Positions 3,061 through 39,481 of a DNA stretch of 60,335 bases are shown here, piece after piece (within the stretch, counting starts at the first letter, position 1; each line of letters begins with the position of its first letter). The translations under genes and the position numbers were made by a program. Origin of the DNA: Patescibacteria group bacterium (lineage in GTDB: Bacteria; Patescibacteriota; CPR2; UBA1875; JAMCYV01); NCBI GenBank assembly GCA_023473595.1, contig JAMCYV010000011.1, positions 1-60,335 on the forward strand. The letters are read 5' to 3'. Under the pieces are notes generated by a model that saw only the letters and a list, made by a program, of their open reading frames with translations, made no database searches and was not told where the DNA came from.

Positions 3061-4074
3061 ATGAAGCAGGAGATTGAAGGTTTAAGAGAGAGCTTTAGAA
3101 GCGATTTAGCTAAAGCTCGAGAGGAGAGGGAACTAGAGGCAACAAGGGTCAAATACCTTGGCCGTAAAGGCCTTTTGACTTTGATTTTGAAAAAAATTTC
3201 GGATCTTCCTTTGGATCAAAAGAAAGAGATCGGGAGTCTTGCAAATAGCCTCAAAAAAGAGATTACAGCGCTTTTAAATAAAAAGAAAAAGGATCTTGAA
3301 TCCCTGAAAGTTTCTAATTTACAAAAAGAAGCGATAGATATTACTGCTCCGGGATCTAAGTTTCCTTTGGGCCACCTGCATCCTGTAACCCAGGTTTTTG
3401 ATGATATTATCGAAATCTTCAAAAGGCTTGGTTTTTCTGTTGCCGAAGGCCCCGAGGTCGAAAGCGATTGGTATAATTTCCAAGCTTTGAATTTCCCCAA
3501 AGATCATCCGGCTAGGGACACCCAGGATACTCTTTTTGTTTCAGAAGAGATAGTCCTAAGGACCCAGACTTCGCCAGTCCAAATCCGTTATATGGAGGAA
3601 AACAAGCCGCCGATTCGGGTAGTTGCTCCAGGAAGAACTTATAGAAGAGACAGCGATGTCACTCATACCCCAATGTTTCATCAGCTTGAAGGGTTAGCGG
3701 TTAGCACAGACATTAGATTCTCTGACCTAAAAGGAACTCTGGAATATTTTGTTCACGAATTTTTCGGTTCGGAAAGAAAACTAAGATTCAGACCTCACTT
3801 TTTTCCTTTTACAGAACCCAGTGCTGAAGTGGATATTTCCTGCGGGATCTGTAACAGCAAGGGCTGTAGGGTTTGCAAGTTTTCCGGCTGGATTGAAGTC
3901 TTAGGGGCAGGGATGGTTCATCCCCAAGTTTTAAAAAATGGCGGGATTGATCCTAAAGTGTATCGGGGTTTTGCTTTCGGCTTGGGAATCGAGAGGTTGG
4001 CAATGCTTAAGTATAACATCGATGATTTAAGATTATTTTTTGAAAATGATTTAAGATTTTTGAAGCAGTTTTGA
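3061..4074 (+). CDS. pheS: phenylalanine--tRNA ligase alpha subunit
   Basis: Class II aaRS motifs FPKDHPARDTQDT, RTQTSPVQIRYM, GRTYRRD, FHQLEG, GAGMVHP, GFAFGLGIERLAM. ATG at 3061 is chosen over the ORF-track start 2995, which overlaps the upstream gene. Confidence 0.95.
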   Translation: MKQEIEGLRESFRSDLAKAREERELEATRVKYLGRKGLLTLILKKISDLPLDQKKEIGSLANSLKKEITALLNKKKKDLESLKVSNLQKEAIDITAPGSKFPLGHLHPVTQVFDDIIEIFKRLGFSVAEGPEVESDWYNFQALNFPKDHPARDTQDTLFVSEEIVLRTQTSPVQIRYMEENKPPIRVVAPGRTYRRDSDVTHTPMFHQLEGLAVSTDIRFSDLKGTLEYFVHEFFGSERKLRFRPHFFPFTEPSAEVDISCGICNSKGCRVCKFSGWIEVLGAGMVHPQVLKNGGIDPKVYRGFAFGLGIERLAMLKYNIDDLRLFFENDLRFLKQF

Positions 4075-4147: not shown

Positions 4148-4522
4148 ATGGCTAGTTTAGAAGATTTAAAAATTTATAAAATGGCATGTGATTTAGAAAA
4201 ATTTGTTTATGAATTGGTGATTTCATTTCCAAAAGAGGAAAAGTATCGTCAAATTGATCAAATGAAAAGATCCTCTGCATCGGTTTGCGATAATATTGCA
4301 GAAGGTTATGGTAAATTTAGTTTTCAAAGTAAAATTCAATCATTTTATGTTGCTAGAGGAGAAGCAATGGAAATAAAAAACCAATTGGAAAGGTCGATCA
4401 ATAAAAAGTTTGTTACCAAAAATAAAGCTGAAAATCTAATAAAAGGTTATACAGAATTAATAAAGGGTATTAATGGTTATATTAATTACTTGCGAAAGGA
4501 GAAGGAAAACCTAGTTTCCTAA
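4148..4522 (+). CDS. four-helix-bundle protein (23S rRNA intervening-sequence protein family)
   Basis: 124 aa. Family-typical pattern KIYKMACDL..V..L...FPKEEKY....Q..RS..SV..NIAEGYG...........ARGE..E. Confidence 0.8.
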   Translation: MASLEDLKIYKMACDLEKFVYELVISFPKEEKYRQIDQMKRSSASVCDNIAEGYGKFSFQSKIQSFYVARGEAMEIKNQLERSINKKFVTKNKAENLIKGYTELIKGINGYINYLRKEKENLVS

Positions 4523-4547
4523 TTAACTAATTCCCCATTTAACTAAT

Positions 4548-7379
4548 ATGAGAATACCGATTAATTGGCTTAAAGAATATGTGGATTTCAAACTGACGAC
4601 AGGGGAGCTTTCTGATAAATTAACGATGTCCGGGACGGAAAATGAGATCTTGAGCGAAGCGACGGCGATTGATCCGAATGTCATCGTGGCGGAAATCCTA
4701 GAGATCAAACCACATCCAAATGCCGACAAACTAAGGGTTGTGAGAGTTAGAATTTCAGATAAAGAGGAAAAGGAGATAGTCTGCGGAGCGGCAAACATCG
4801 AAGCCGGGCAGAAAGTGCCTTTAGCTTTGCCAGGTGCAAAATTCGGGGAATTTGAGATCGAAGAAACCGAAATAAGAGGGGTAAAGTCGCCGGGAATGCT
4901 TTGTTCGGAAAAAGAACTGGGGATTTCTGACCATGCGGAAGGGATTATGATTCTAGAACCGGATTCACCTGTCGGTGAAAGCTTGGCTAACATTTTAAGG
5001 GGCGGTAAAAATGTCTTAGAAGCGGAAATTACTCCAAATAGGGGTGATTGTCTTTCCATTATTGGGGTCGCTAGAGAGGTGGCGGCGGTAACAGGAAAGA
5101 GAATTAAGGATTTAGAATTTAGAATTAAGGAGTCTAAAGAAAGGGCGGAAGATTTTCTAAATATTAAAGTCGAGGAAAAAGAACTTTGTCCTCGGTATGT
5201 TGCAAGAGTAGTCAAAATTAAAAATAACGGCAAATCGCCGAAATGGATGCAGGAAAGATTAATTGAATCGGGGATAAGGCCTATAAGCATGGTCGTCGAC
5301 GTTACAAATTATGTCATGCTTGAAATGGGCCAACCTTTGCATGCTTTCGATTTTGATAAGTTAACAGTTAACAGTAAACAGAAAACAGAAATAATTGTTC
5401 GCAGAGCAAAGGATAATGAAATAATTAAAACTCTAGATGGAATTGAAAGAAAGCTAACAAAAGATGATTTGGTTATTGCTGATTTAAAGCAAGCTATTGC
5501 CGTTGCCGGGGTCATGGGCGGAGCCAATACAGAAGTTGATGAAAATACCAAAATGGTGATTCTAGAGTCAGCAGCTTTCGATAAAGTATCCGTTAGAAAG
5601 ACGGCCCAAAAGTTGAATTTAAGAAGCGAAGCTTCGAATCGATTTGAAAAAGGCATTCCTATATCTCTAAATGAAATGGCTATCGACCGGGCGGCATGGC
5701 TTTTAGCAGAAATTGCCGGCGGCGAGGTCATGTCCGGGCGGCTGGACGTCCTTTCCAAATGGATTTGGGTTCAGCATATAGGATTTAGAATCTCGAACTT
5801 TGAAAAGTTCTTGGGGGAAAGGGTCGAGGAAAAAAGGATTGTTGAGATTCTTAAATCTTTAGGCTTTGAAGCAGAAAAATTTGATATTAAAAAAGAAGCC
5901 AAAAAACACTTGGGGAAGCCTTATATTTATGGCGCCAGTTTCAGGACTCACGGAACTAATGCCTTTGATTGCTCCTATTTTACTGATTATATTTATTCTT
6001 TGATCGGTCTAAATATCGGCCACACAGCTCTCGATCAATTTGAAAATGGCAAGGAAGTAAAAGAAAAAGACTTAAAACCCGGCGACTTACTCTTCTACAT
6101 TGGTCACAATCCGAGGAAAAGCAAAAAATATCCCAAAGGCGTCGGACATGTCGGGCTTTACATAGGGGGCGGGGAAATAGTGGATTCTGTAAAGTTTGAA
6201 TATGATGAGAAAACTAAGACCTACAAAGAGAAGGGCCATCAGGCAGTCCATGAACAACCGGTAGAAATCTTTATGGAAAACCCTGAATTCTTGGGCGCCA
6301 GAAGATACTATGATGATTTAGATGATTTCATTGCGGTCGCTGTCCCTTGGTGGCGACTTGATGTTACTTTGGAAGAAGACCTCTATGAAGAAGTAACAAG
6401 AATTTATGGCTATAACAAGGTAAAAAGTACCTTGCCTATAGGGGAGCTCCCAAAGCCCAAGGATTTAGAAAAACTTTCTTTAGTTAAAAAAATAAGAGAG
6501 GTTTTAAAGGGAATTGGCTTTGCTGAAACTTACAATTATTCATTTATCGGCGAAGATTCATTTAAAGCGCTTGATTTAGATTTAAAAGACGCCGTCAAAA
6601 TCCAAAATCCGATTGCCAAAGATCTTGAATACATGAGAACTTTGCTTTTGCCTTCGCTTCTCTTAGATATTCAAAAAAACCAAGGCAATTTTGAGGCGAT
6701 TAAAATATTCGAGATCGCCCAAATCTACTTAAGCAAAGGAAAGATTGATTCCTTACCGGAAGAAATTCCGCATCTTGCCGGGGCTATTTTAGGAGGCGAA
6801 TCGCCAGGGATAAATTATAAAGAAGGGAAAGAATTCTATCAGATAAAGGGAGCGATCCAAAATATTGCTAAAGAGATTTTAGACAAAATTGATTTTGTTC
6901 CAGGAACAAATAAAAACCTTCATCCTTTTAGATCAGCTGATCTTTTAATCAAAGGCAAAAAGATCGGTTTTATAGGAGAAGTTAAACCAGATATTCTTCG
7001 AAAATTCGATATCAAAAAGAGGACTGCTATTTTTGAAATTGATCTTTCAACTATTTTAGAAATAGTAGGAAAAGAAAAAAGATTTGTTCCTTTCAGCCGC
7101 TATCCTTCTATTTCTAGAGATTTAGCCTTTGTTATAGGAAAAAACGTTCAGGTAAAGGATATACTTTCCGTGGTTGACCCAAAGAGCGACCTAGTCCAAA
7201 ATATTTCCATAAAAGACATATATTTTGGCAAGGAAATGGGCGAGAATAAGAAAAGCGTTCTTATAAATATTATCTACCAGGGAAAAGACAGAACCCTTGA
7301 AGAAAAAGAGATAGAAAACATTGAGAAGAAAGTTATTGAAAATGTTAGCCAAAAACTCCAGGGTACGCTAAGGGATTAG
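4548..7379 (+). CDS. pheT: phenylalanine--tRNA ligase beta subunit with an inserted NlpC/P60 domain
   Basis: N-terminal tRNA-binding OB fold (KPHPNADKLRVVRV). B5 consensus flanks FLGERVEEKRIVEILKSLGF and VAVPWWRLDVTLEEDLYEEVTRIYGYN. FDX-ACB-like C terminus. 943 aa, with a ~149-aa insert at 5883-6329. Confidence 0.95.
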   Translation: MRIPINWLKEYVDFKLTTGELSDKLTMSGTENEILSEATAIDPNVIVAEILEIKPHPNADKLRVVRVRISDKEEKEIVCGAANIEAGQKVPLALPGAKFGEFEIEETEIRGVKSPGMLCSEKELGISDHAEGIMILEPDSPVGESLANILRGGKNVLEAEITPNRGDCLSIIGVAREVAAVTGKRIKDLEFRIKESKERAEDFLNIKVEEKELCPRYVARVVKIKNNGKSPKWMQERLIESGIRPISMVVDVTNYVMLEMGQPLHAFDFDKLTVNSKQKTEIIVRRAKDNEIIKTLDGIERKLTKDDLVIADLKQAIAVAGVMGGANTEVDENTKMVILESAAFDKVSVRKTAQKLNLRSEASNRFEKGIPISLNEMAIDRAAWLLAEIAGGEVMSGRLDVLSKWIWVQHIGFRISNFEKFLGERVEEKRIVEILKSLGFEAEKFDIKKEAKKHLGKPYIYGASFRTHGTNAFDCSYFTDYIYSLIGLNIGHTALDQFENGKEVKEKDLKPGDLLFYIGHNPRKSKKYPKGVGHVGLYIGGGEIVDSVKFEYDEKTKTYKEKGHQAVHEQPVEIFMENPEFLGARRYYDDLDDFIAVAVPWWRLDVTLEEDLYEEVTRIYGYNKVKSTLPIGELPKPKDLEKLSLVKKIREVLKGIGFAETYNYSFIGEDSFKALDLDLKDAVKIQNPIAKDLEYMRTLLLPSLLLDIQKNQGNFEAIKIFEIAQIYLSKGKIDSLPEEIPHLAGAILGGESPGINYKEGKEFYQIKGAIQNIAKEILDKIDFVPGTNKNLHPFRSADLLIKGKKIGFIGEVKPDILRKFDIKKRTAIFEIDLSTILEIVGKEKRFVPFSRYPSISRDLAFVIGKNVQVKDILSVVDPKSDLVQNISIKDIYFGKEMGENKKSVLINIIYQGKDRTLEEKEIENIEKKVIENVSQKLQGTLRD

Positions 7380-9530: not shown

Positions 9531-12008
9531 ATGTTTATTACTCTTCTTATTTCAATAATTGTTCTTTCGGCAGCCGGTTTTGCAGGATTCTTTTTTTATA
9601 GAAAGAGCCGAAGCTGGCGGAAACAGATTGAAAGATCTCTAAAAATGGTCCCTTTTATAGTGAGAATTCCCCAATCTACAGGACAAGATAGGGCAGGGAA
9701 TAGGGATGAAAGAGAGATTGCCAAGGAACTTATCTCCAAAGCAGAAAATGTCTATTACTCCATTTATTCGACCTATAAGAAGGGGTTTAAGAATTTTATA
9801 GTTGGCCAAAAACATTTGGCAATCGAGATAGTAGCCCAAAAAGGGGAAATCTCTTTTTATTTTTCTGTGCCCATTACTTTAGTCGGACTTATTGAGAAGA
9901 CGATCACTTCCCAGTATTCGGAGGCGGTAGTAGAAGAGGCAGAGGAACATAATATTTTCTTTAAAGAACAAAACTTAAGAGATATTTATGGAGGCGAGTT
10001 TTCTTTAAGAAGAAAATCTATCTTTCCTTTAAAAACTTATGAGACGATTGATCTTGATCCTTTAGAAGCGATTACCAATTCTCTTAGCAAGCTCGAAGAG
10101 AAAGAAGGGGCGGCGATCCAAATTCTTATTCGACCGGCCGATCCTAAATTCGTAAAATCAGCGAAATATGTCGCCGACCGGATGCAAAAAGGCGAATATA
10201 AAGAAAAGTTTATGTTCTCTAAGGTAGCTAGGGAAATCGGAAAAGGGCTTTCAAATGCAGCGCTCAATAAACAGGAAGACTTTTCTAATAAACAAGCCAA
10301 ACAGCTGACTCCAGCTGAAGAAGAGACAATAAAAGCGATTCAAAACAAAGCATCAAAGCCGGTTTTTGAAACGGTTATAAGAGTCATAGTCTCTGCTTCT
10401 AGTCCGGTAAGGGGAGAAATGATCCAGAATGAAATTATCGGCTCCTTCCAGCAATTCAATGATTTTAATTTAAACCAATTAAAATTTGAGAGAGCCAAAG
10501 ACAAAGAAAGGCTGGTAACTGATTATATTTTTCGATTTTTCGGGTTCAGGAGTCAAATGATTTTAAATGCGGAGGAGCTAGCATCAATCTATCATTTGCC
10601 CAATTATTTGATTAGGACTCCTAATATTAAATGGCTGCCAGCCAAGAGGACAGCAGCTCCTGTGGCTTTGCCAAGCGAAGGGACTATCCTAGGCGAGACG
10701 GCTTTCAGAGGAGAAACCAGGGACATCCGGCTTTCTAATGAAGATCAAAAAAGGCATATCTACATTATCGGGCAGACCGGAACTGGTAAGACGAATATGA
10801 TGAAAAATATGATTCTTGATGAGATAAGCAAAGGCAACGGACTTTGCTACATCGATCCTCACGGGATGGACTTCCAAGATATTCTCTATAAAATTCCTAA
10901 GGAAAGGGCGGAAGATGTCGTTATTTTCGACGCTTCGGATGTCGAAAGGCCTTTAGGGCTTAATCTTTTTGAAGCAAAAACTATTGAAGAGCAAGATTTT
11001 GTTATCCAAGAGGCTATCCAAATGCTCTATAAGCTCTATGATCCAGGGCACACTGGAATAATGGGGCCGAGGTTCGAACATTGGTTTAGGAATGCGGCTC
11101 TTGCCATTATGGCCGATCCCAAGGGCGGGACGTTCCTGGAAGTTCCCAAAATCTTTACCGATGATAACTATTTGCAAGAAAAACTTAAGTATGTAAAAGA
11201 TCCAGTAGTTAGGAATTTCTGGCTTTCGGAAATGGCCCAGACAAATGAATTTCATAAGTCTGAAGTCTTGGGCTGGTTTGTCGGCAAATTCGGCGCTTTT
11301 ATGACAAATTCCACTATGCGAAACATTTTAGGGCAGGTCGAGACTTCCTTAAATTTACAGGAGATTATGGATAAGAAGAAAATTCTTTTAATTAATCTTG
11401 CCAAGGGCAAAGTCGGGGAGCTAAATATGTCGCTTTTAGGGATGATTTTAGTCTCCAAGATTCAAATGACGGCAATGAGCAGAGTGGGAATGCCCGAAGA
11501 CCAAATAGTTGATTTTACTCTCTATGTCGATGAATTCCAAAACTTTGCGACCGATTCTTTTGCCAGTATTCTATCTGAAGCCCGAAAATTCGGACTTCGA
11601 CTTGTTGTCGCTAATCAGTTCATAGGGCAATTAAAAGAAGAGATCAAAGATGCGGTTTTTGGGAATGTTGGCACTCTTGTTAGTTTCAGAGTCGGGCCGG
11701 AGGATGGGGAATTTATGGCCAAGCAATTTGAACCGGTCTTTAATACTTCTGATCTTATCAATATCGAAAACTACCATGCTTTCATTAAACTTATGGTAAG
11801 CGGAATGCCGACTAAGCCTTTCACCATGAAAGCCAAACCGCCTACGGGTACAGCTGATAAAGGAAGAGGGGAAGCAATAAGGCAGCTTGCACGTCTTAAA
11901 TACGGCCGGGCAAGGGAGATTGTTGATAAAGAAATTCAAGAAAAGCTTCAGATAGGAGGAAAGACTGAAGCTCCGATGGATGTTCCAAGGGATATAATGG
12001 GGGGCTAG
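9531..12008 (+). CDS. membrane-anchored P-loop ATPase of the TraD/VirD4/HerA (type IV coupling protein-like) superfamily
   Basis: N-terminal TM (LLISIIVLSAAGFAGFFFY), Walker A GQTGTGKT, IDPHG motif, Walker B FTLYVDEFQNF, then ARKFGLRLVVANQ. Confidence 0.85.
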   Translation: MFITLLISIIVLSAAGFAGFFFYRKSRSWRKQIERSLKMVPFIVRIPQSTGQDRAGNRDEREIAKELISKAENVYYSIYSTYKKGFKNFIVGQKHLAIEIVAQKGEISFYFSVPITLVGLIEKTITSQYSEAVVEEAEEHNIFFKEQNLRDIYGGEFSLRRKSIFPLKTYETIDLDPLEAITNSLSKLEEKEGAAIQILIRPADPKFVKSAKYVADRMQKGEYKEKFMFSKVAREIGKGLSNAALNKQEDFSNKQAKQLTPAEEETIKAIQNKASKPVFETVIRVIVSASSPVRGEMIQNEIIGSFQQFNDFNLNQLKFERAKDKERLVTDYIFRFFGFRSQMILNAEELASIYHLPNYLIRTPNIKWLPAKRTAAPVALPSEGTILGETAFRGETRDIRLSNEDQKRHIYIIGQTGTGKTNMMKNMILDEISKGNGLCYIDPHGMDFQDILYKIPKERAEDVVIFDASDVERPLGLNLFEAKTIEEQDFVIQEAIQMLYKLYDPGHTGIMGPRFEHWFRNAALAIMADPKGGTFLEVPKIFTDDNYLQEKLKYVKDPVVRNFWLSEMAQTNEFHKSEVLGWFVGKFGAFMTNSTMRNILGQVETSLNLQEIMDKKKILLINLAKGKVGELNMSLLGMILVSKIQMTAMSRVGMPEDQIVDFTLYVDEFQNFATDSFASILSEARKFGLRLVVANQFIGQLKEEIKDAVFGNVGTLVSFRVGPEDGEFMAKQFEPVFNTSDLINIENYHAFIKLMVSGMPTKPFTMKAKPPTGTADKGRGEAIRQLARLKYGRAREIVDKEIQEKLQIGGKTEAPMDVPRDIMGG

Positions 12009-25757: not shown

Positions 25758-25914
25758 AGCTCTTAGCCTTTTTTAAAGGCTAAAATCAAGTAAACAATTT
25801 CAACGAGTTTTTTAGTTTTCAAAACTAAAAACAAACTCTTTTTTGGAGAATTTTTCATCCTACGGATGACCAACCGAAGGTTGGCAGCCTAGTTTGAATT
25901 ACTTTCCATTCTTT

Positions 25915-25957
<43 letters not shown>

Positions 25958-26072
25958 TTAACACATGCAAGTCGTATGCATTTAGGTGCATGGCGAACTG
26001 GTGAGTAGTACATTGGAATCTGCCCCCATCACGGGGATAACCCGCCGAAAGGCGGGATAATACCCGATAGCC

Positions 26073-26207
26073 CCAGCACATATTTGTCATTAATTTGCTA
26101 ACAAAGACGATTCTTGCAAATCTTGTTCTATTACCTCAGGTGTAGAAATCTAGATCAAAATGGCTCATTCGCAAATTAATAAGTCTTTGATGACAAATAT
26201 GTGCTGG
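26073..26207 (+). other. 16S insertion 1 (V2 / helix 9-10 region), ORF-less long hairpin
   Basis: Perfect 18-bp closing stem ccagcacatatttgtcat(26073-26090)/atgacaaatatgtgctgg(26190-26207), between conserved gataatacccgatag and gtaaagttccggcgg. Confidence 0.85.
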
Positions 26208-26281
26208 GTAAAGTTCCGGCGGATGGGGAGGAGCCTTTGTCCTATCAGCTTGTTGGTGGGGTAACGGCCTACCAAGGCTAT

Positions 26282-26316
<35 letters not shown>

Positions 26317-26329
26317 TTGGGACTGAGAT

Positions 26330-26360
<31 letters not shown>

Positions 26361-26477
26361 AGGAATCTTCCGCAATGGGCGCAAGCCTGACGGAGCAACG
26401 CCGCGTGAAGGATGACGGCCTTCGGGTTGTAAACTTCTTTTCTCTGGGAAGATTATGACGGTACCAGAGGAATAAGC

Positions 26478-26521
<44 letters not shown>

Positions 26522-26685
26522 AAGCGTTATCCGGAATTACTGGGCGTAAAGAGTGTGTAGGTGGTGGTCTAAGTCAGATGTTAAATCTCTGGGCTTAACT
26601 CAGAGGCTGCATCTGATACTGGATTGCTAGAGACAAGAAGAGGTAAGCGGAATTCTCGGTGTAGCAGTTAAATGCGTAGATATCG

Positions 26686-26718
<33 letters not shown>

Positions 26719-26752
26719 TCTTGTTCTGACACTGAGACACGAAAGCGTGGGG

Positions 26753-26783
<31 letters not shown>

Positions 26784-26858
26784 CGCTGTAAACGATGCCT
26801 ACTGGCTGTGGGTTTCGACGACCTCGAGATCCGTAGCGAAGCTAACGCGTTAAGTAGG

Positions 26859-26926
<68 letters not shown>

Positions 26927-27023
26927 ACACGTGGTTTAATTCGACTCTAAGCGAAGAACCTTACCGAGGCTTGACATCCTGGGAACCCCGGCGAAAGTCG
27001 GGGGTGCCTTCGGGAACCCAGTG

Positions 27024-27066
<43 letters not shown>

Positions 27067-27139
27067 AGGTTAAGTCCTTTAACGAGCGCAACCCTTGCTC
27101 TGTGTTGTATGTTTCACAGAGGACTGCCCTGGTCAACGG

Positions 27140-27174
<35 letters not shown>

Positions 27175-27403
27175 TCTTACGCCTCGGGCTACACACATGT
27201 TACAATGGCTAGCACAATGGGTCGCGAACCCGCGAGGGGAAGCTAATCTCATCAAAACTAGTCCCAGTTCGGATTGAAGGCTGCAATTCGCCTTCATGAA
27301 GTCGGAATCGCTAGTAACCGTGGGTCAGCAATACCACGGTGAATACGTTCTCGGGTCTTGTACACACCGCCCGTCACACCACGAAAGTTGGTAACATCCG
27401 AAA

Positions 27404-27540
27404 CCCCGCACATATTTTCGATCCAAAACTGCCCAATTTGTCCTAAATATAGTTAGTTTTGATTTGGGCAAAGTGTGGCAAAAGTAAATTATAATTGCAA
27501 AGAGTTTTGGCAGGACAAATTATCGAAACTATGTGCGGGG
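27404..27540 (+). other. 16S insertion 2 (tip of helix 44), ORF-less extended helix
   Basis: ccccgcacat(27404-27413)/atgtgcgggg(27531-27540) closing stem, with further internal pairing (ttcgat/atcgaa, aatttgtcct/aggacaaatt). Confidence 0.85.
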
Positions 27541-27630
27541 TGAAGATGGGACCAGCGATTGGGGTGAAGTCGTAACAAGGTATCCGTAGGGGAATCTGCG
27601 GATGGATCACCTCCTTTCTAAAGGAGAAAT

Positions 27631-28134: not shown

Positions 28135-28211
28135 GGGCGTGTAGCTCAGTTGGTTAGAGCGCGTCACTGATAATGACGAGGTCCCTGGTTCAAATCCAGG
28201 CACGCCCACCA
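28135..28211 (+). tRNA. tRNA-Ile (GAT), CCA encoded
   Basis: Cloverleaf gggcgtg/cacgccc, anticodon loop ctGATaa, T loop ttcaaat. Confidence 0.95.
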
Positions 28212-28217
28212 TAAAGT

Positions 28218-28481
28218 ATGAGCGAACTTTTGCAAAGAATAATTTACGGCTCCTTGGGAATAATCTTCGGCGTTGTCTTGGTTTGGAAATCCCATGAGAT
28301 CGTGAACAATGTCGGCCACAATTATTGGGCCGAAGAACATTTAGGCGAAGGAGGAACCTACAATTTGGTAAGGTTTCTCGGGGTTTTCTTAATGTTTGTC
28401 TTTTTTGCATATATGATAGGAAAATTGGGGGTAGTTTATTTGGCTGTATCAAAGTTTTTCAGAAATCTGATAGGAAGTTAA
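28218..28481 (+). CDS. small two-TM membrane protein encoded between tRNA-Ile and tRNA-Ala
   Basis: 87-aa ORF with two clear hydrophobic segments. ATG lies 6 nt after the tRNA, with no obvious RBS. The antisense 108-aa ORF is R/P-rich and overlaps the tRNA. Confidence 0.4.
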   Translation: MSELLQRIIYGSLGIIFGVVLVWKSHEIVNNVGHNYWAEEHLGEGGTYNLVRFLGVFLMFVFFAYMIGKLGVVYLAVSKFFRNLIGS

Positions 28482-28499
28482 AGAATTGTTAATTATTAT

Positions 28500-28575
28500 G
28501 GGCCCGTAGCTTAGCTGGTAGAGCGCCTGCTTTGCAAGCAGGAGGTCAGGAGTTCGAATCTCCTCGGGTCCACCA
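28500..28575 (+). tRNA. tRNA-Ala (TGC), CCA encoded
   Basis: gggcccg/cgggtcc acceptor with G3:U70, anticodon loop ttTGCaa. Confidence 0.95.
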
Positions 28576-28604: not shown

Positions 28605-28634
28605 AAAAACCCTAGGCAGTAACCTAGGGTTTTT
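28605..28634. terminator. bidirectional hairpin between tRNA-Ala and the convergent P-loop gene
   Basis: aaaaaccctagg(28605-28616)/cctagggttttt(28623-28634), a perfect 12-bp stem with A and T runs on both sides. Confidence 0.75.
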
Positions 28635-29928
28635 CCCTCCAAACCGAGTTTAAGACTTCTCGGCTTTTTTTGTCTTCCTCCAGGAAATGGTTGGGAATGT
28701 ACTGGAAAAGGAGGGCACGGGCGAGAAACTCGAGATATGAATCCCAATTTCTAAGTTTCCTCTTTACTCCGACTAATCTCCCGGTGGTGTAGTGGGAATT
28801 GTAGTATTTTACCAGGGATTCCGGCTTGTCTTCTTCGAGGAGGAGGTAGCTTCTTGCTTCGGCGACATTCTTAATCCCGAAGCTTTTTAAGAGGTTTCGC
28901 CACTCGTTTACCTTCTGCCAGTCGGAAGTAATGATGAGCGCCATATCGATTGTAGAGAGGAGAAGATGAGTTATCTCGTCGATCTTTCCTGGGAGATCGA
29001 CAAAGATAATGTTTTCGGTGAGGCTTTCAAGTTGGACAAGAGCTGGGTAGACTTTTTCAATCTCCCATTTTGTCTTCAAGTCCTTGTGTCGTTCCCGATC
29101 GGTGCCAAGCCCAACGTTAATGAGTTCCAGAGTTGGGCTCCCCAAATCCAAGTCGATGCTACCAACGTTAATCTTAAGGTTGCTGAAATCTGGCCGGCTT
29201 AAAAGCGAGTCCAGTATAACTCGGATTTCGCTAGTGATCGTGGCACAAGAAGTGCTCTTGCCGGAACCGGGTGGTCCGCAAGCCGCGATCCTAATTTGTC
29301 TGTTCTCGAGAAGCCGAACTTTCTCTTCTTCGAAAATCACTCTTTCTACGCCGGTAATTTTCCCGCCTTTCCCAAAGGTATCCCAGGTTGGGATAGTTGT
29401 GTAGTGAAGATTGCGGTCATTCATTACGATGGGAAGCGGTTCCAGACTAGCAGGGGACGGTTCTGGAAGAGCTCTTAGAAGCTCATCAAGAGAGCTTGCG
29501 ATCTTAAGGCAATTGTCTAGCAGGTTGCAGAAGTCGCCTAGGGTTGTAGTCATCGGATTGTAGAAGCATTTGATGTAGTGTTTGAACAGCTTGGGCGAAA
29601 GTCTTCTTCTCGTAAGCTTTTCTTCTACAATCTTTACAACATGGCACTGGGTTGCGTAATAGATAATCTCTCGCGCCAACTTACCTTCCTTGTCCGGTAA
29701 GTTTCGGGAGATTCTATGAAGCTTATGCGCCAGGTCATTGCCAAAGAGGCAGAAAGTAGAAGTTCGAGAGAAAGTTTCAATTGCTTTCACACTTAGCTTC
29801 TCTTTCCTTGCCACCACGACGTTCTCATCAAGCAGGTTTAACCTATGAAGCAGCCAAAAACCAACGGCTGCTAAAAGGCTAGGCTTCTTTGGTACTATTA
29901 CCACGCGTATGGTTTTCAACCACTCCAC
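28624..29928 (-). CDS. P-loop NTPase with a ~210-aa unknown N-terminal domain
   Basis: Walker A ACGPPGSGKST. Downstream IIFVDLPG (Walker B or dynamin-like DxxG). 434 aa. Looks more GC-rich than its surroundings by eye. Confidence 0.8.
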   Translation of the reverse strand: MEWLKTIRVVIVPKKPSLLAAVGFWLLHRLNLLDENVVVARKEKLSVKAIETFSRTSTFCLFGNDLAHKLHRISRNLPDKEGKLAREIIYYATQCHVVKIVEEKLTRRRLSPKLFKHYIKCFYNPMTTTLGDFCNLLDNCLKIASSLDELLRALPEPSPASLEPLPIVMNDRNLHYTTIPTWDTFGKGGKITGVERVIFEEEKVRLLENRQIRIAACGPPGSGKSTSCATITSEIRVILDSLLSRPDFSNLKINVGSIDLDLGSPTLELINVGLGTDRERHKDLKTKWEIEKVYPALVQLESLTENIIFVDLPGKIDEITHLLLSTIDMALIITSDWQKVNEWRNLLKSFGIKNVAEARSYLLLEEDKPESLVKYYNSHYTTGRLVGVKRKLRNWDSYLEFLARALLFQYIPNHFLEEDKKSREVLNSVWREKP

Positions 29929-38531: not shown

Positions 38532-38618
38532 GCGGACGTGGCGGAATTGGTATACGCGCAAGCTTGAGGTGCTTGTGGGAGTAATCCTGTGGAGGTTCAA
38601 GTCCTCTCGTCCGCACCA
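38532..38618 (+). tRNA. tRNA-Leu (GAG), CCA encoded
   Basis: gcggacg/cgtccgc acceptor, loop ttGAGgt, long variable arm. Confidence 0.92.
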
Positions 38619-38663
38619 TTTTTTAATTGTCAATTGTCAATTATTAATTAATAATTATTGAAG

Positions 38664-38740
38664 GGGCGCTTAGCTCAGTTGGCTAGAGCGACTGGTTTAC
38701 ACCCAGTAGGTCATAGGTTCGAGTCCTATAGCGCCCACCA
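38664..38740 (+). tRNA. tRNA-Val (TAC), CCA encoded
   Basis: gggcgct/agcgccc acceptor, loop ttTACac. Confidence 0.92.
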
Positions 38741-38939
38741 TTTTTCGCCACAGCGAAAAATGCCCTTCCGAAGCTTTAGCGGAGGAGGGCAATTAACACT
38801 TAGAGCAACTTTAAAAAAAGGCTTCAAATGGCAGGCCAAAAATTGTCTGAGCTACGCTTGGGGGCCAGTAAAATTGGGAGCGAAGTTTGTCCTTCGTAGC
38901 TTTAGCGGAGAATGGACATTATAATATAAATCAATATAT
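38741..38939. repeat. GC-rich palindromic repeats between tRNA genes
   Basis: gcccttccgaagctttagcggaggagggc and gtccttcgtagctttagcggagaatggac share ccttcNNagctttagcggag. The region also contains gagctacgcttgggggccag. Confidence 0.6.
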
Positions 38940-39015
38940 GCCGAGATAGCTCAGTTGGTAGAGCACAGGACTGAAAATCCTGGTGTCCCCGGTTCGATCC
39001 CGGGTCTCGGCACCA
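38940..39015 (+). tRNA. tRNA-Phe (GAA), CCA encoded
   Basis: gccgaga/tctcggc acceptor, loop ctGAAaa. Confidence 0.95.
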
Positions 39016-39016
39016 T

Positions 39017-39091
39017 GCGGGTGTCGTATAGTGGTTATTACATGGCCTTGCCAAGGCTAAAACGGCGGTTCGATTCCGCTCACCCGCTCCA
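39017..39091 (+). tRNA. tRNA-Gly (GCC), CCA encoded
   Basis: gcgggtg/cacccgc acceptor, loop ttGCCaa. Starts 1 nt after tRNA-Phe. Confidence 0.9.
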
Positions 39092-39119
39092 TAAGATAAA
39101 AGTATGAGTGGGGCCTTTT

Positions 39120-39245
39120 TAGGAGAGGTTCTCACCCTGCGGGCGATCAGCCGTAGGCTGAGAATCCCGTTTCCCGCTCCAATTTATATTTGGCCTCGTG
39201 GCGGATCCGCCTTCGCCAGAGGCTTCGTTCGGACAAGGTGGCTTA
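39120..39245. repeat. GC-rich palindromic repeats between tRNA-Gly and tRNA-Cys
   Basis: gttctcaccctgcgggcgatcagccgtaggctgagaatc, and ggcggatccgccttcgccagaggcttcgttcggacaaggtggc. Confidence 0.5.
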
Positions 39246-39252
39246 TATTTAT

Positions 39253-39326
39253 GGCGTTGTGGCCGAGTAGCTAGGCAACGGTCTGCAAAACCGTTTACCC
39301 GGGTGCAAATCCCGGCAACGCCTCCA
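39253..39326 (+). tRNA. tRNA-Cys (GCA), CCA encoded
   Basis: ggcgttg/caacgcc acceptor, stem acggt/accgt, loop ctGCAaa. Confidence 0.9.
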
Positions 39327-39394
39327 AGGTTCAACAAAGTTGAACGCTTGTAGCTAATAGCTATTGGTTACTGGCTACAAGTAATCGATTCTTT

Positions 39395-39481
39395 GCCGCG
39401 GTGGCGGAACCGGTATACGCGCATGACTTAAAATCATGTGACCGAAAGGTCTTGGGAGTTCGAGTCTCCCCCGCGGCACCA
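39395..39481 (+). tRNA. tRNA-Leu (TAA), CCA encoded
   Basis: gccgcgg/ccgcggc acceptor, loop ctTAAaa, long variable arm. Confidence 0.92.

Follow-up and report, generated by a model that had tools for sequence, protein, structure and literature searches.

How a peptidase-type domain comes to lie within an aminoacyl-tRNA synthetase, and whether it can still act there as an enzyme, are questions raised by a pheT gene, encoding the beta subunit of phenylalanyl-tRNA synthetase (PheRS), on contig JAMCYV010000011.1 of assembly GCA_023473595.1 from a Patescibacteria group bacterium. The whole stretch analysed, 60,335 nucleotides (nt) long, is hereafter referred to as the window. Few known proteins are as conserved as the aminoacyl-tRNA synthetases, and lineage-specific catalytic domains in them have repeatedly marked new biology, such as editing, signalling or lipid aminoacylation. 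Here we report that the B5 domain of this PheT is split by a complete NlpC/P60 domain, and we hold with high confidence, from profile, model and conservation evidence, both this architecture and the catalytic competence of the module. Far from being confined to this genome, the architecture is shared across a lineage and already tagged by automatic Pfam annotation. An earlier reading of the letters alone (the sequence-only reading) knew of no previous account of it, and no description of an NlpC/P60 domain in any PheRS or other synthetase was found in the full-text searchable literature. Both parts belong to well-known families; it is the combination and its conservation that are new.

Position and fold of the insert

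The pheT frame, taken to be uninterrupted in the sequence-only reading, is indeed so, with its sole stop at the end. The features of the locus that matter here are as follows.

3061 to 4074, plus strand: pheS, encoding the PheRS alpha subunit that partners the pheT product (Pfam tRNA-synt_2d, E = 2e-102, and Phe_tRNA-synt_N)
4548 to 7379, plus strand: pheT, PheRS beta subunit, 943 residues (NCBI MCL5093724.1), with all bacterial PheT domains plus the insert
5748 to 5882, plus strand: first part of B5, residues ~401–445 (strand-helix-helix-strand), carrying a hydrophobic motif (from the secondary structure of the AlphaFold2 (AF2) model)
5883 to 6329, plus strand: inserted NlpC/P60 (MEROPS C40) domain, residues 446–594 (from Pfam, AF2, Foldseek and the alignment gap)
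6330 to 6422, plus strand: second part of B5, residues 595–625 (strand, helix; invariant P600, R603, D605, D611, E614 and E615) (from Pfam B5 and alignment)

The set of PheT domains B1–B8 is complete. The model TIGR00472 (pheT_bact) scored 769.7 bits against a cut-off of 402.65, and Pfam located tRNA_bind (residues 45–144), B3_4 (214–391), B5 (592–622), tRNA_synthFbeta (626–833) and FDX-ACB (850–942). The full-length AF2 model has a mean predicted local distance difference test score (pLDDT) of 92 and matches PheRS beta chains in Foldseek with E-values down to 1e-77. Its eight beta domains and editing residues are common to the canonical beta chains of E. coli (3pco_B), T. thermophilus (1pys_B) and S. 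haemolyticus (2rhq_B). Across 120 aligned sequences with or without the insert, N254, H265 (E. coli H265), G324 (E. coli G318) and E340 (E. coli E334) are invariant, and A362 (equivalent to E. coli A356) is Ala or Ser. The B3/4 post-transfer editing site is thus intact, and the invariance of its residues rules out the idea that the insert replaces a degraded editing domain. Apart from the insert, the product appears to be a normal bacterial PheRS beta subunit, for which we infer the usual charging of tRNA-Phe by an (alpha-beta)2 enzyme. Wherever a GTDB locus offered enough sequence (63 of 63), pheS lies upstream of pheT. The open reading frame (ORF) lists of the window show no second pheT, and one NlpC-bearing frame was found there. 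The cognate tRNA-Phe (GAA) is encoded in a tRNA cluster at 38532–39481 on the plus strand (Leu, Val, Phe, Gly, Cys, Leu). Two long antisense ORFs overlie pheT (4523–5290, 255 residues, and 5309–5758, 149 residues, both on the minus strand); there is no coding evidence for them, and they are most likely a by-product of plus-strand codon composition.

The interruption of B5 emerged from several comparisons. TIGR00472 matches PheT in two stretches, the first of which stops at residue 445, and the Pfam B5 profile was matched over only positions 37–67 of 67 (residues 592–622). The split is located where the sequence-only reading had put it, with FLGERVEEKRIVEILKSLGFEAEKF running up to nt 5882, IAVAVPWWRLDVTLEEDLYEEVTRIYGYN / IAVAVPWWRLDV resuming from nt 6330 and 149 residues in between. 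Residues ~446–591 form a clean gap in the alignment with 42 insert-less PheTs (~770–805 residues), and in the alignment with E. coli PheT the extra segment falls between beta437 and beta442. In the AF2 model, B5 consists of a strand (409–414), two helices (415–422 and 428–437) and a second strand (441–444), followed by the insert, a strand (594–599) and a helix (609–620), which places the module in the beta2–beta3 hairpin of this winged-helix-like domain. Solved or characterized PheRSs have no domain in this hairpin, which has 4 residues in E. coli, whereas the insertion here measures 147–149 residues and is accompanied by a remodelled first B5 strand.

Taken alone, the insert matches Pfam NLPC_P60 (PF00877) with an E-value of 3.3e-15 and 56.4 bits (gathering score, 23), in agreement with the domain originally proposed; within the whole PheT the match covers residues 456–548. 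NCBIfam NlpC/P60 models match it in part (E-values of 1e-15 to 1e-5), and NlpC/P60-type peptidases are the only families that Pfam or NCBIfam found in it. An AF2 model of the insert built from its own alignment reached a pLDDT of 95.2 and a predicted template-modelling score of 0.90, and Foldseek matched it with a probability of 1.00 to solved NlpC/P60 catalytic domains (7cfl, 6b8c, 8i2e and 7v6u). The model superposes on Acd24020 (7cfl), SagA (6b8c), LytE (8i2e), MepS, CwlO and YkfC (3h41); template-modelling (TM) scores, which at ~0.8 are normalized by the target and refer to single-domain entries, were 0.81–0.83 for 7cfl, 0.83 for 6b8c and 0.82 for 8i2e. A profile search of the Protein Data Bank sequences with the insert returned the same set of DL-endopeptidases, and the best matches by both sequence and structure are secreted DL-endopeptidases (C. 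difficile Acd24020, E. faecium SagA, B. subtilis LytE and CwlO, E. coli MepS, and M. tuberculosis RipA, RipB and RipC). The topology is that of non-permuted P60 proteins, with an N-terminal helix bearing the Cys followed by a beta-sheet bearing the His. The confidence of the insert-only model, together with the Foldseek probability and TM scores, puts the match far beyond chance, and the module is predicted to fold as an independent domain.

Distribution, docking and origin

A word-indexed search with the insert and short flanks had returned only stand-alone secreted NlpC/P60 proteins, as if the architecture were unique, but it did not retrieve even the query, a limit of index sensitivity; a whole-protein search overturned this picture. 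Besides the window protein, it gave 77 more clusters at 90% identity (908–1030 residues; 36–56% identity), all with PF00877 among their PheT domains and stemming from NCBI, JGI, ENA and Logan assemblies. When one genome per GTDB species was scanned, 70 species had the insert, most of them under the label Candidatus Saccharibacteria or Saccharimonadia. We refer to the 78 clusters as the Saccharimonadia type or the window lineage. A profile search of 1.84 billion representatives yielded ~30 PheT-sized representatives (50% level) of this type and a second class of 776–876 residues with a single NlpC/P60 match near residues 340–480. By Pfam, proteins of the second class are PheTs without the B2 tRNA_bind domain in which NLPC_P60 likewise splits B5; the module enters at the identical position. 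One of these proteins, used as query, gave ~35 clusters whose source names are Parcubacteria or Terrybacteria (hereafter the Parcubacteria type; 36 sequences, or 39 with three divergent PheTs); many insert-less relatives of ~680 residues from Nealsonbacteria, Pacebacteria and Minisyncoccales adjoin them. Five B2-less proteins of this type (P0287, P0308, P0309, P0380 and P0419; loci L077 and L078) are encoded directly after pheS. Some insert-bearing PheTs of this type appear at NCBI as 'C40 family peptidase', as 'hypothetical protein' or as 'beta subunit-related protein'; since the genes sit right after pheS, these names are probably mis-annotations of bona fide pheT. Five other proteins (P0157, P0175 and P0181–P0183; 400–1200 residues), with 4–18 separate partial NlpC/P60 profile matches each, seem to consist of NlpC/P60 repeats in tandem and to have no relationship to PheT.

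This survey for a shared insertion point, which took in the 78 Saccharimonadia-type clusters and ~39 Parcubacteria-type or divergent PheTs, also bears on two ways in which the sequence-only reading might have failed. The segment is lineage-wide, but it is no linker devoid of conserved Cys and His, as both are kept in 117 of 117 inserts; and a chimeric assembly is excluded by over 110 independent clusters, which come from different samples and were built by different assemblers.

The B5 domain of the window lineage appears to have been reshaped around its guest. Ten-residue blocks across the insert have pLDDT values of 85–98 in the AF2 model, with 98 and 97 for the two junction blocks, and the linkers between B5 and the module are only ~2 and ~7 residues long. 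Positions L402, W405, I406, W407, Q409, H410 and G412 are conserved in 64–100% of the 78 insert-bearers versus 0–4% of 27 close insert-less PheTs, which carry Lys, Glu, Asp or Gly at the motif positions 402–412; F445, A596 and W601 show a similar association. Outside the insert, the positions that differ most between the two groups are all in B5, and the comparison revealed no comparably strong insert-associated change in the editing, catalytic-like or anticodon-binding domains. An exposed B5 strand turned hydrophobic, together with short, high-confidence junctions, indicates that the module of the window lineage would be docked on B5 in a fixed orientation rather than held by a floppy tether. 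The Trp-x-Trp motif of this first B5 strand (KWIWVQHIG; window 5748–5783, residues 401–412) is a perfect marker of the insert in the Saccharimonadia type. It is absent from the Parcubacteria type, in which the domain is instead preceded by ~8 additional residues that probably form a helix.

Insert and host have largely travelled together. The mean pairwise identity is 0.56 for the insert and 0.46 for the rest of PheT (0.61 for B3/4, 0.35 for the catalytic-like module and 0.33 for B8), and insert and host distances correlate with r = 0.73; the insert has thus been under purifying selection at least as strong as that on the synthetase and has largely co-diverged with it. Both insert types share the motif Y-x-[YFW]-G-A-[SK] and a loop ahead of the Cys that is ~4 residues longer than in canonical Y-x-W-G-G proteins. 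In reciprocal per-domain profile scoring, the PheT inserts of the other lineage outranked those stand-alone NlpC/P60 proteins that were retrieved; short proteins with high scores were PheT fragments. The shared motif, loop length and profile ranking fit one old insertion, which probably happened once, early in the history of Patescibacteria, and was followed by patchy loss, although pheT may also have been transferred. In a neighbour-joining tree of PheT without the insert (a midpoint-rooted distance tree, too crude for counting gains and losses), insert-bearing and insert-less proteins are interleaved. The insert-less P0072, P0093 and P0121 are nested in the insert-bearing clade of this tree and lack the Trp-x-Trp motif; either the tree errs at this point or these proteins did not lose the insert recently.

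Active site and substrate pocket

The active-site positions of the module are encoded as follows.

5922 to 5924, plus strand: Tyr459, oxyanion and S1 tyrosine of the 'PY.xG' motif (equivalent to YkfC Tyr226; role from PMC2954226)
5967 to 5975, plus strand: Asp474-Cys475-Ser476, with the predicted nucleophile Cys between S1 residues (equivalent to YkfC Asp237 and Ser239; from alignment)
6147 to 6149, plus strand: His534, predicted catalytic general base (from alignment)
6183 to 6185, plus strand: Asp546, third triad position (equivalent to YkfC His303; from alignment)

The catalytic residues originally picked out by eye, Cys475 (TGC, 5970–5972), His534 (CAT, 6147–6149) and Asp546 (GAT, 6183–6185), held up in alignment. 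Cys475 and His534 are invariant in the Saccharimonadia type (78/78) and in the Parcubacteria-type and divergent PheTs (39/39). The third position varies more: His in 62, Asp in 8 (the window included), Glu in 3, Met in 3, Asn in 1 and Thr in 1 of the Saccharimonadia type, and His in 32, Asn in 3 and Tyr in 1 of the Parcubacteria type, so that 110 of the 117 inserts have His, Asp, Glu, Asn or Gln. Further residues without exception among the 78 are Y459, G462, F473, D474, Y477, D480, G491, G501, G512, D513, Y538, G540 and G583. A thiol-dependent amidase activity is predicted for the module.

A guide to its substrate is provided by YkfC with bound L-Ala-gamma-D-Glu, in which the S1 pocket is formed by Tyr226, Asp237 and Ser239 together with residues that are hydrophobic at 228 and small at 257, next to a highly conserved Arg255 (PMC2954226). 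The residues diagnostic of gamma-D-Glu recognition (Xu et al. 2010, PMC2954226) recur in the window lineage as Y459 (78/78), D474 (78/78) and S476 (74/78), with Phe, Trp, Tyr, Leu or Met at position 461 and Ser, Ala, Cys or Thr at 494. The Parcubacteria type keeps the canonical pocket: Tyr, Ser and the small residue are found in 36 of 36 sequences, Asp in 34, Arg in all 36, and the equivalent of position 461 is Tyr in 32, Phe in 2 and His in 2. With the three divergent PheTs added, Tyr, Cys and Ser stand at 39/39 and Asp at 37/39 (two Asn).

YkfC itself (Foldseek E-value of 2e-8) shares with the module the non-permuted P60 fold, the Cys-His-His/Asp triad and the Tyr/Asp/Ser/small S1 residues. 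However, the PheT module lacks SH3b and sits inside an aminoacyl-tRNA synthetase. In YkfC and DPP VI, SH3b closes the S2 site and a conserved Asp256 binds L-Ala's free amino group (PMC2954226); Pfam shows no SH3b in PheT, and position 493 is Thr or Ser, not Asp. By sequence the module thus falls outside the YkfC subfamily, though similar peptides may be its substrates. The nearest stand-alone relatives of the insert are of the secreted DL-endopeptidase type (up to 41% identity). Secreted enzymes of this type have signal peptides and canonical Y-x-W-G-G and F-D-C-S-G motifs, whereas the PheT inserts have no export signal, carry Y-x-[YFW]-G-A-[SK] and replace the Gly of F-D-C-S-G with Tyr in the window lineage and Ser in the Parcubacteria type. 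PheT as a whole lacks the signal peptide or export signal that is present in all nearest stand-alone relatives, so its substrate would be cytoplasmic.

Possible roles of the module and its gene neighbourhood

The reading that we favour, tentatively and at somewhat less than even confidence when its substrate class is included, is that the module is an active cytoplasmic gamma-D-glutamyl-type amidase for cell-wall peptides built into PheRS. An old insertion would have placed a complete papain-like cysteine amidase of the NlpC/P60 (C40) family in the beta2–beta3 hairpin of B5, where purifying selection would keep it active, with Cys475 as nucleophile, His534 as base and Asp or His546 as the orienting residue. 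Because the S1 residues of peptidoglycan DL-endopeptidases are retained, the likeliest chemistry would be thiol-dependent hydrolysis of an amide of the gamma-D-Glu-(Lys/diaminopimelate) type. Because PheRS is cytoplasmic, the substrates would be wall-derived stem peptides that these auxotrophic, host-dependent bacteria import or recycle, in the manner of YkfC or DPP VI. Cytoplasmic NlpC/P60 enzymes that recycle murein peptides have precedents in B. subtilis YkfC, DPP VI and Chlamydia YkfC (PMC2954226, PMC9928106). Residence in PheRS may offer constitutive co-expression on an essential scaffold or, alternatively, a regulatory link between wall-peptide turnover and tRNA-Phe charging. In this account we infer that the module is rigidly docked, active and cytoplasmic, and likewise its substrate class and why it resides in PheRS.

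Several observations weigh against this favoured reading. In the window lineage Arg255 is replaced (position 492 is His in 40, Tyr in 34 and Phe in 4) and the Gly of the DCSG motif has become an invariant Tyr477 (78/78); both changes lie next to the active site, so the pocket may be retuned to a different substrate. SH3b restricts YkfC to free peptides, and a cytoplasmic DL-endopeptidase without it could attack UDP-MurNAc-peptide precursors. The median isoelectric point (pI) of the insert is 8.5 in the Saccharimonadia type and 9.7 in the Parcubacteria type, on average more basic than the rest of PheT, which would also fit proximity to RNA. Many close relatives lack the insert, having lost it or never had it, so it is dispensable for PheRS function. 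Finally, the reading leaves the choice of PheRS as host unexplained; B5 is a permissive host for insertion.

An alternative that we regard as unlikely is that the module is a ligand sensor or regulator. Its ligands, which it might also turn over at a slow rate, would be muropeptides or some other small amide, and it would tune PheRS, or a moonlighting function of B5 in nucleic-acid binding, to wall or host-contact status, thereby linking this status to translation. Such a role would make sense of the rigid coupling to B5 through a co-evolved hydrophobic interface and of the retained binding-pocket residues, and B5 has a DNA/RNA-binding-like fold (PMC3275996) and is reported not to take part in aminoacylation (PMC10880493). 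However, the invariance of Cys and His in 117 of 117 inserts is a demand of catalysis, not of binding; RipD, a relative that only binds (4jxb, by its description), has lost both residues, and a non-catalytic module of the RipD kind is ruled out by this invariance. Nor do the catalytic and editing domains of PheT show insert-associated changes comparable to those in B5.

We consider it quite unlikely that the module acts instead on the products of the synthetase, as a thiol hydrolase or acyltransferase for aminoacyl-tRNA or the adenylate; it could then be a second editing site, a deacylase for D-aminoacyl- or N-acyl-aminoacyl-tRNA, or a device for thioester transfer of Phe to, for example, a wall peptide. 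The NlpC/P60 superfamily does include acyltransferases that form a Cys thioester (LRAT-like members), the module is built, rigidly docked, into the B1–B5 'editing module' of PheRS, inserts tend to be basic and two pocket-adjacent residues have changed in a lineage-specific manner. However, the module has the non-permuted P60 topology and not that of LRAT, the window insert is near neutral (pI 6.4), and B5 is reported to lie outside aminoacylation (PMC10880493). The fully conserved B3/4 residues leave no editing gap to fill, and the gamma-D-Glu S1 residues are kept, in a Parcubacteria-type pocket that is wholly canonical down to its Arg; with S1 and the editing site both retained, action on aminoacyl esters, as first suggested for this locus, is somewhat disfavoured. 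In its most specific form, which we judge very unlikely, the idea would have Cys475 form a thioester with Phe (or with a mis-activated or D-amino acid) drawn from tRNA-Phe or the adenylate, and then either hydrolyse it, as a second, thiol-based proofreading site, or pass it on to the amine of a gamma-D-Glu wall peptide.

The sequence-only reading had also linked the insert to the next gene, and that gene is as described: an L,D-transpeptidase (PG_binding_4 plus YkuD) that starts 1 nt past the pheT stop (TAG, 7377–7379; ATG, 7381). YkuD directly follows insert-bearing pheT in 48 of 60 GTDB loci with enough downstream sequence, as would be expected if the two formed a functional wall unit coupled to PheRS. 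However, the order pheT–YkuD–x–DUF8128 is kept in three of four insert-less relatives (P0112, P0117 and P0122, not P0072), gyrB follows pheT and YkuD is absent in both Parcubacteria-type insert-bearing loci (2/2), and one distant insert-bearing locus of the Saccharimonadia type has no YkuD after pheT. Moreover, the YkuD protein has an N-terminal hydrophobic stretch, read as a membrane anchor, which would put it outside the cell, whereas PheRS is cytoplasmic. The adjacency thus stands, whereas the coupling did not survive comparison of insert-bearing, insert-less and second-lineage loci, which rules it out as an explanation of the insert and leaves the idea highly improbable. The window order pheT–YkuD–orf–TrwB-like–orf–gyrB–gyrA is a Saccharimonadia elaboration of a pheT–gyrB neighbourhood.

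Practically negligible is the chance that the segment is an artefact or decaying relic (a chimera, a mobile or intein-like element, or an inactive remnant), which would suit its patchy distribution among relatives and the unusual architecture but not its shared, in-frame location in over 110 independent clusters, its GC content of 0.40 against 0.39 for the host gene, its co-divergence with the host (r = 0.73), its better conservation or its invariant catalytic residues. Recent horizontal acquisition or a mobile element is ruled out by the same composition and co-divergence and by family matches that are only of the NlpC/P60 type.

Other genes of the neighbourhood are conserved to varying degrees. 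A TrwB/DUF8128-like coupling-protein ATPase (window 9531–12008, plus strand; also in L002, L004, L005, L079 and L080) is conserved downstream of pheT, at a distance of one or two genes, in Saccharimonadia-type loci whether or not the insert is present (54 of 70 GTDB loci); in the window it is followed by a 979-residue ORF without Pfam hits and then by gyrB and gyrA. Between pheS and pheT, at 4148–4522 on the plus strand, the window encodes a 124-residue protein of the 23S_rRNA_IVP family (PF05635, E = 2e-28; weak bAvd-like match), an arrangement also present in L002/L003. With this protein as query, tblastn detected a copy between pheS and pheT in none of the 70 GTDB loci. Other related loci have unannotated ORFs of 106–132 residues between pheS and pheT (insert-less loci) or just upstream of pheS. 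Farther away, the match to the 16S rRNA gene (25911–27617, plus strand) spans 1707 nt against a model of 1533 positions, amounting to ~170 nt of extra sequence inside the gene, which is common in bacteria of the candidate phyla radiation (CPR). Genes for tRNA-Ile and tRNA-Ala follow (28135–28575 is listed with this region), then a 434-residue ORF on the minus strand (28624–29928) without a Pfam match; no 23S rRNA was found elsewhere in the window.

Hydrolytic domains set within another domain of a synthetase and conserved by lineage are familiar from CP1 of LeuRS, IleRS and ValRS and from INS of ProRS (PMC13114784). Those domains are tRNA-directed, have folds specific to synthetases and are universal or nearly so, whereas the PheT insert is a wall-type papain-like peptidase that is present in part of the Patescibacteria and was lost repeatedly. 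A wall-type cysteine peptidase with an intact predicted active site has thus long been kept in an essential translation enzyme in two deeply separated branches of Patescibacteria. The insert is a clean phylogenetic marker and a cause of mis-annotation, with some pheT genes labelled 'C40 family peptidase' or 'hypothetical protein'. It is also a testable target, as Cys-directed inhibitors such as E-64 act on YkfC-type enzymes, and it is of interest for work on synthetases, NlpC/P60 enzymes and CPR biology.

Patescibacteria are ultra-small, depend on hosts and have to obtain amino acids and wall building blocks by scavenging. Were the module a muropeptide amidase, it would provide a salvage step, unusually housed, in organisms without the usual recycling genes. 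If it acts on aminoacyl-tRNA, it would represent a new class of synthetase-associated chemistry, and if it transfers Phe to a wall peptide, it would open a ribosome- and Fem-independent route that couples tRNA charging to wall-peptide chemistry in CPR bacteria.

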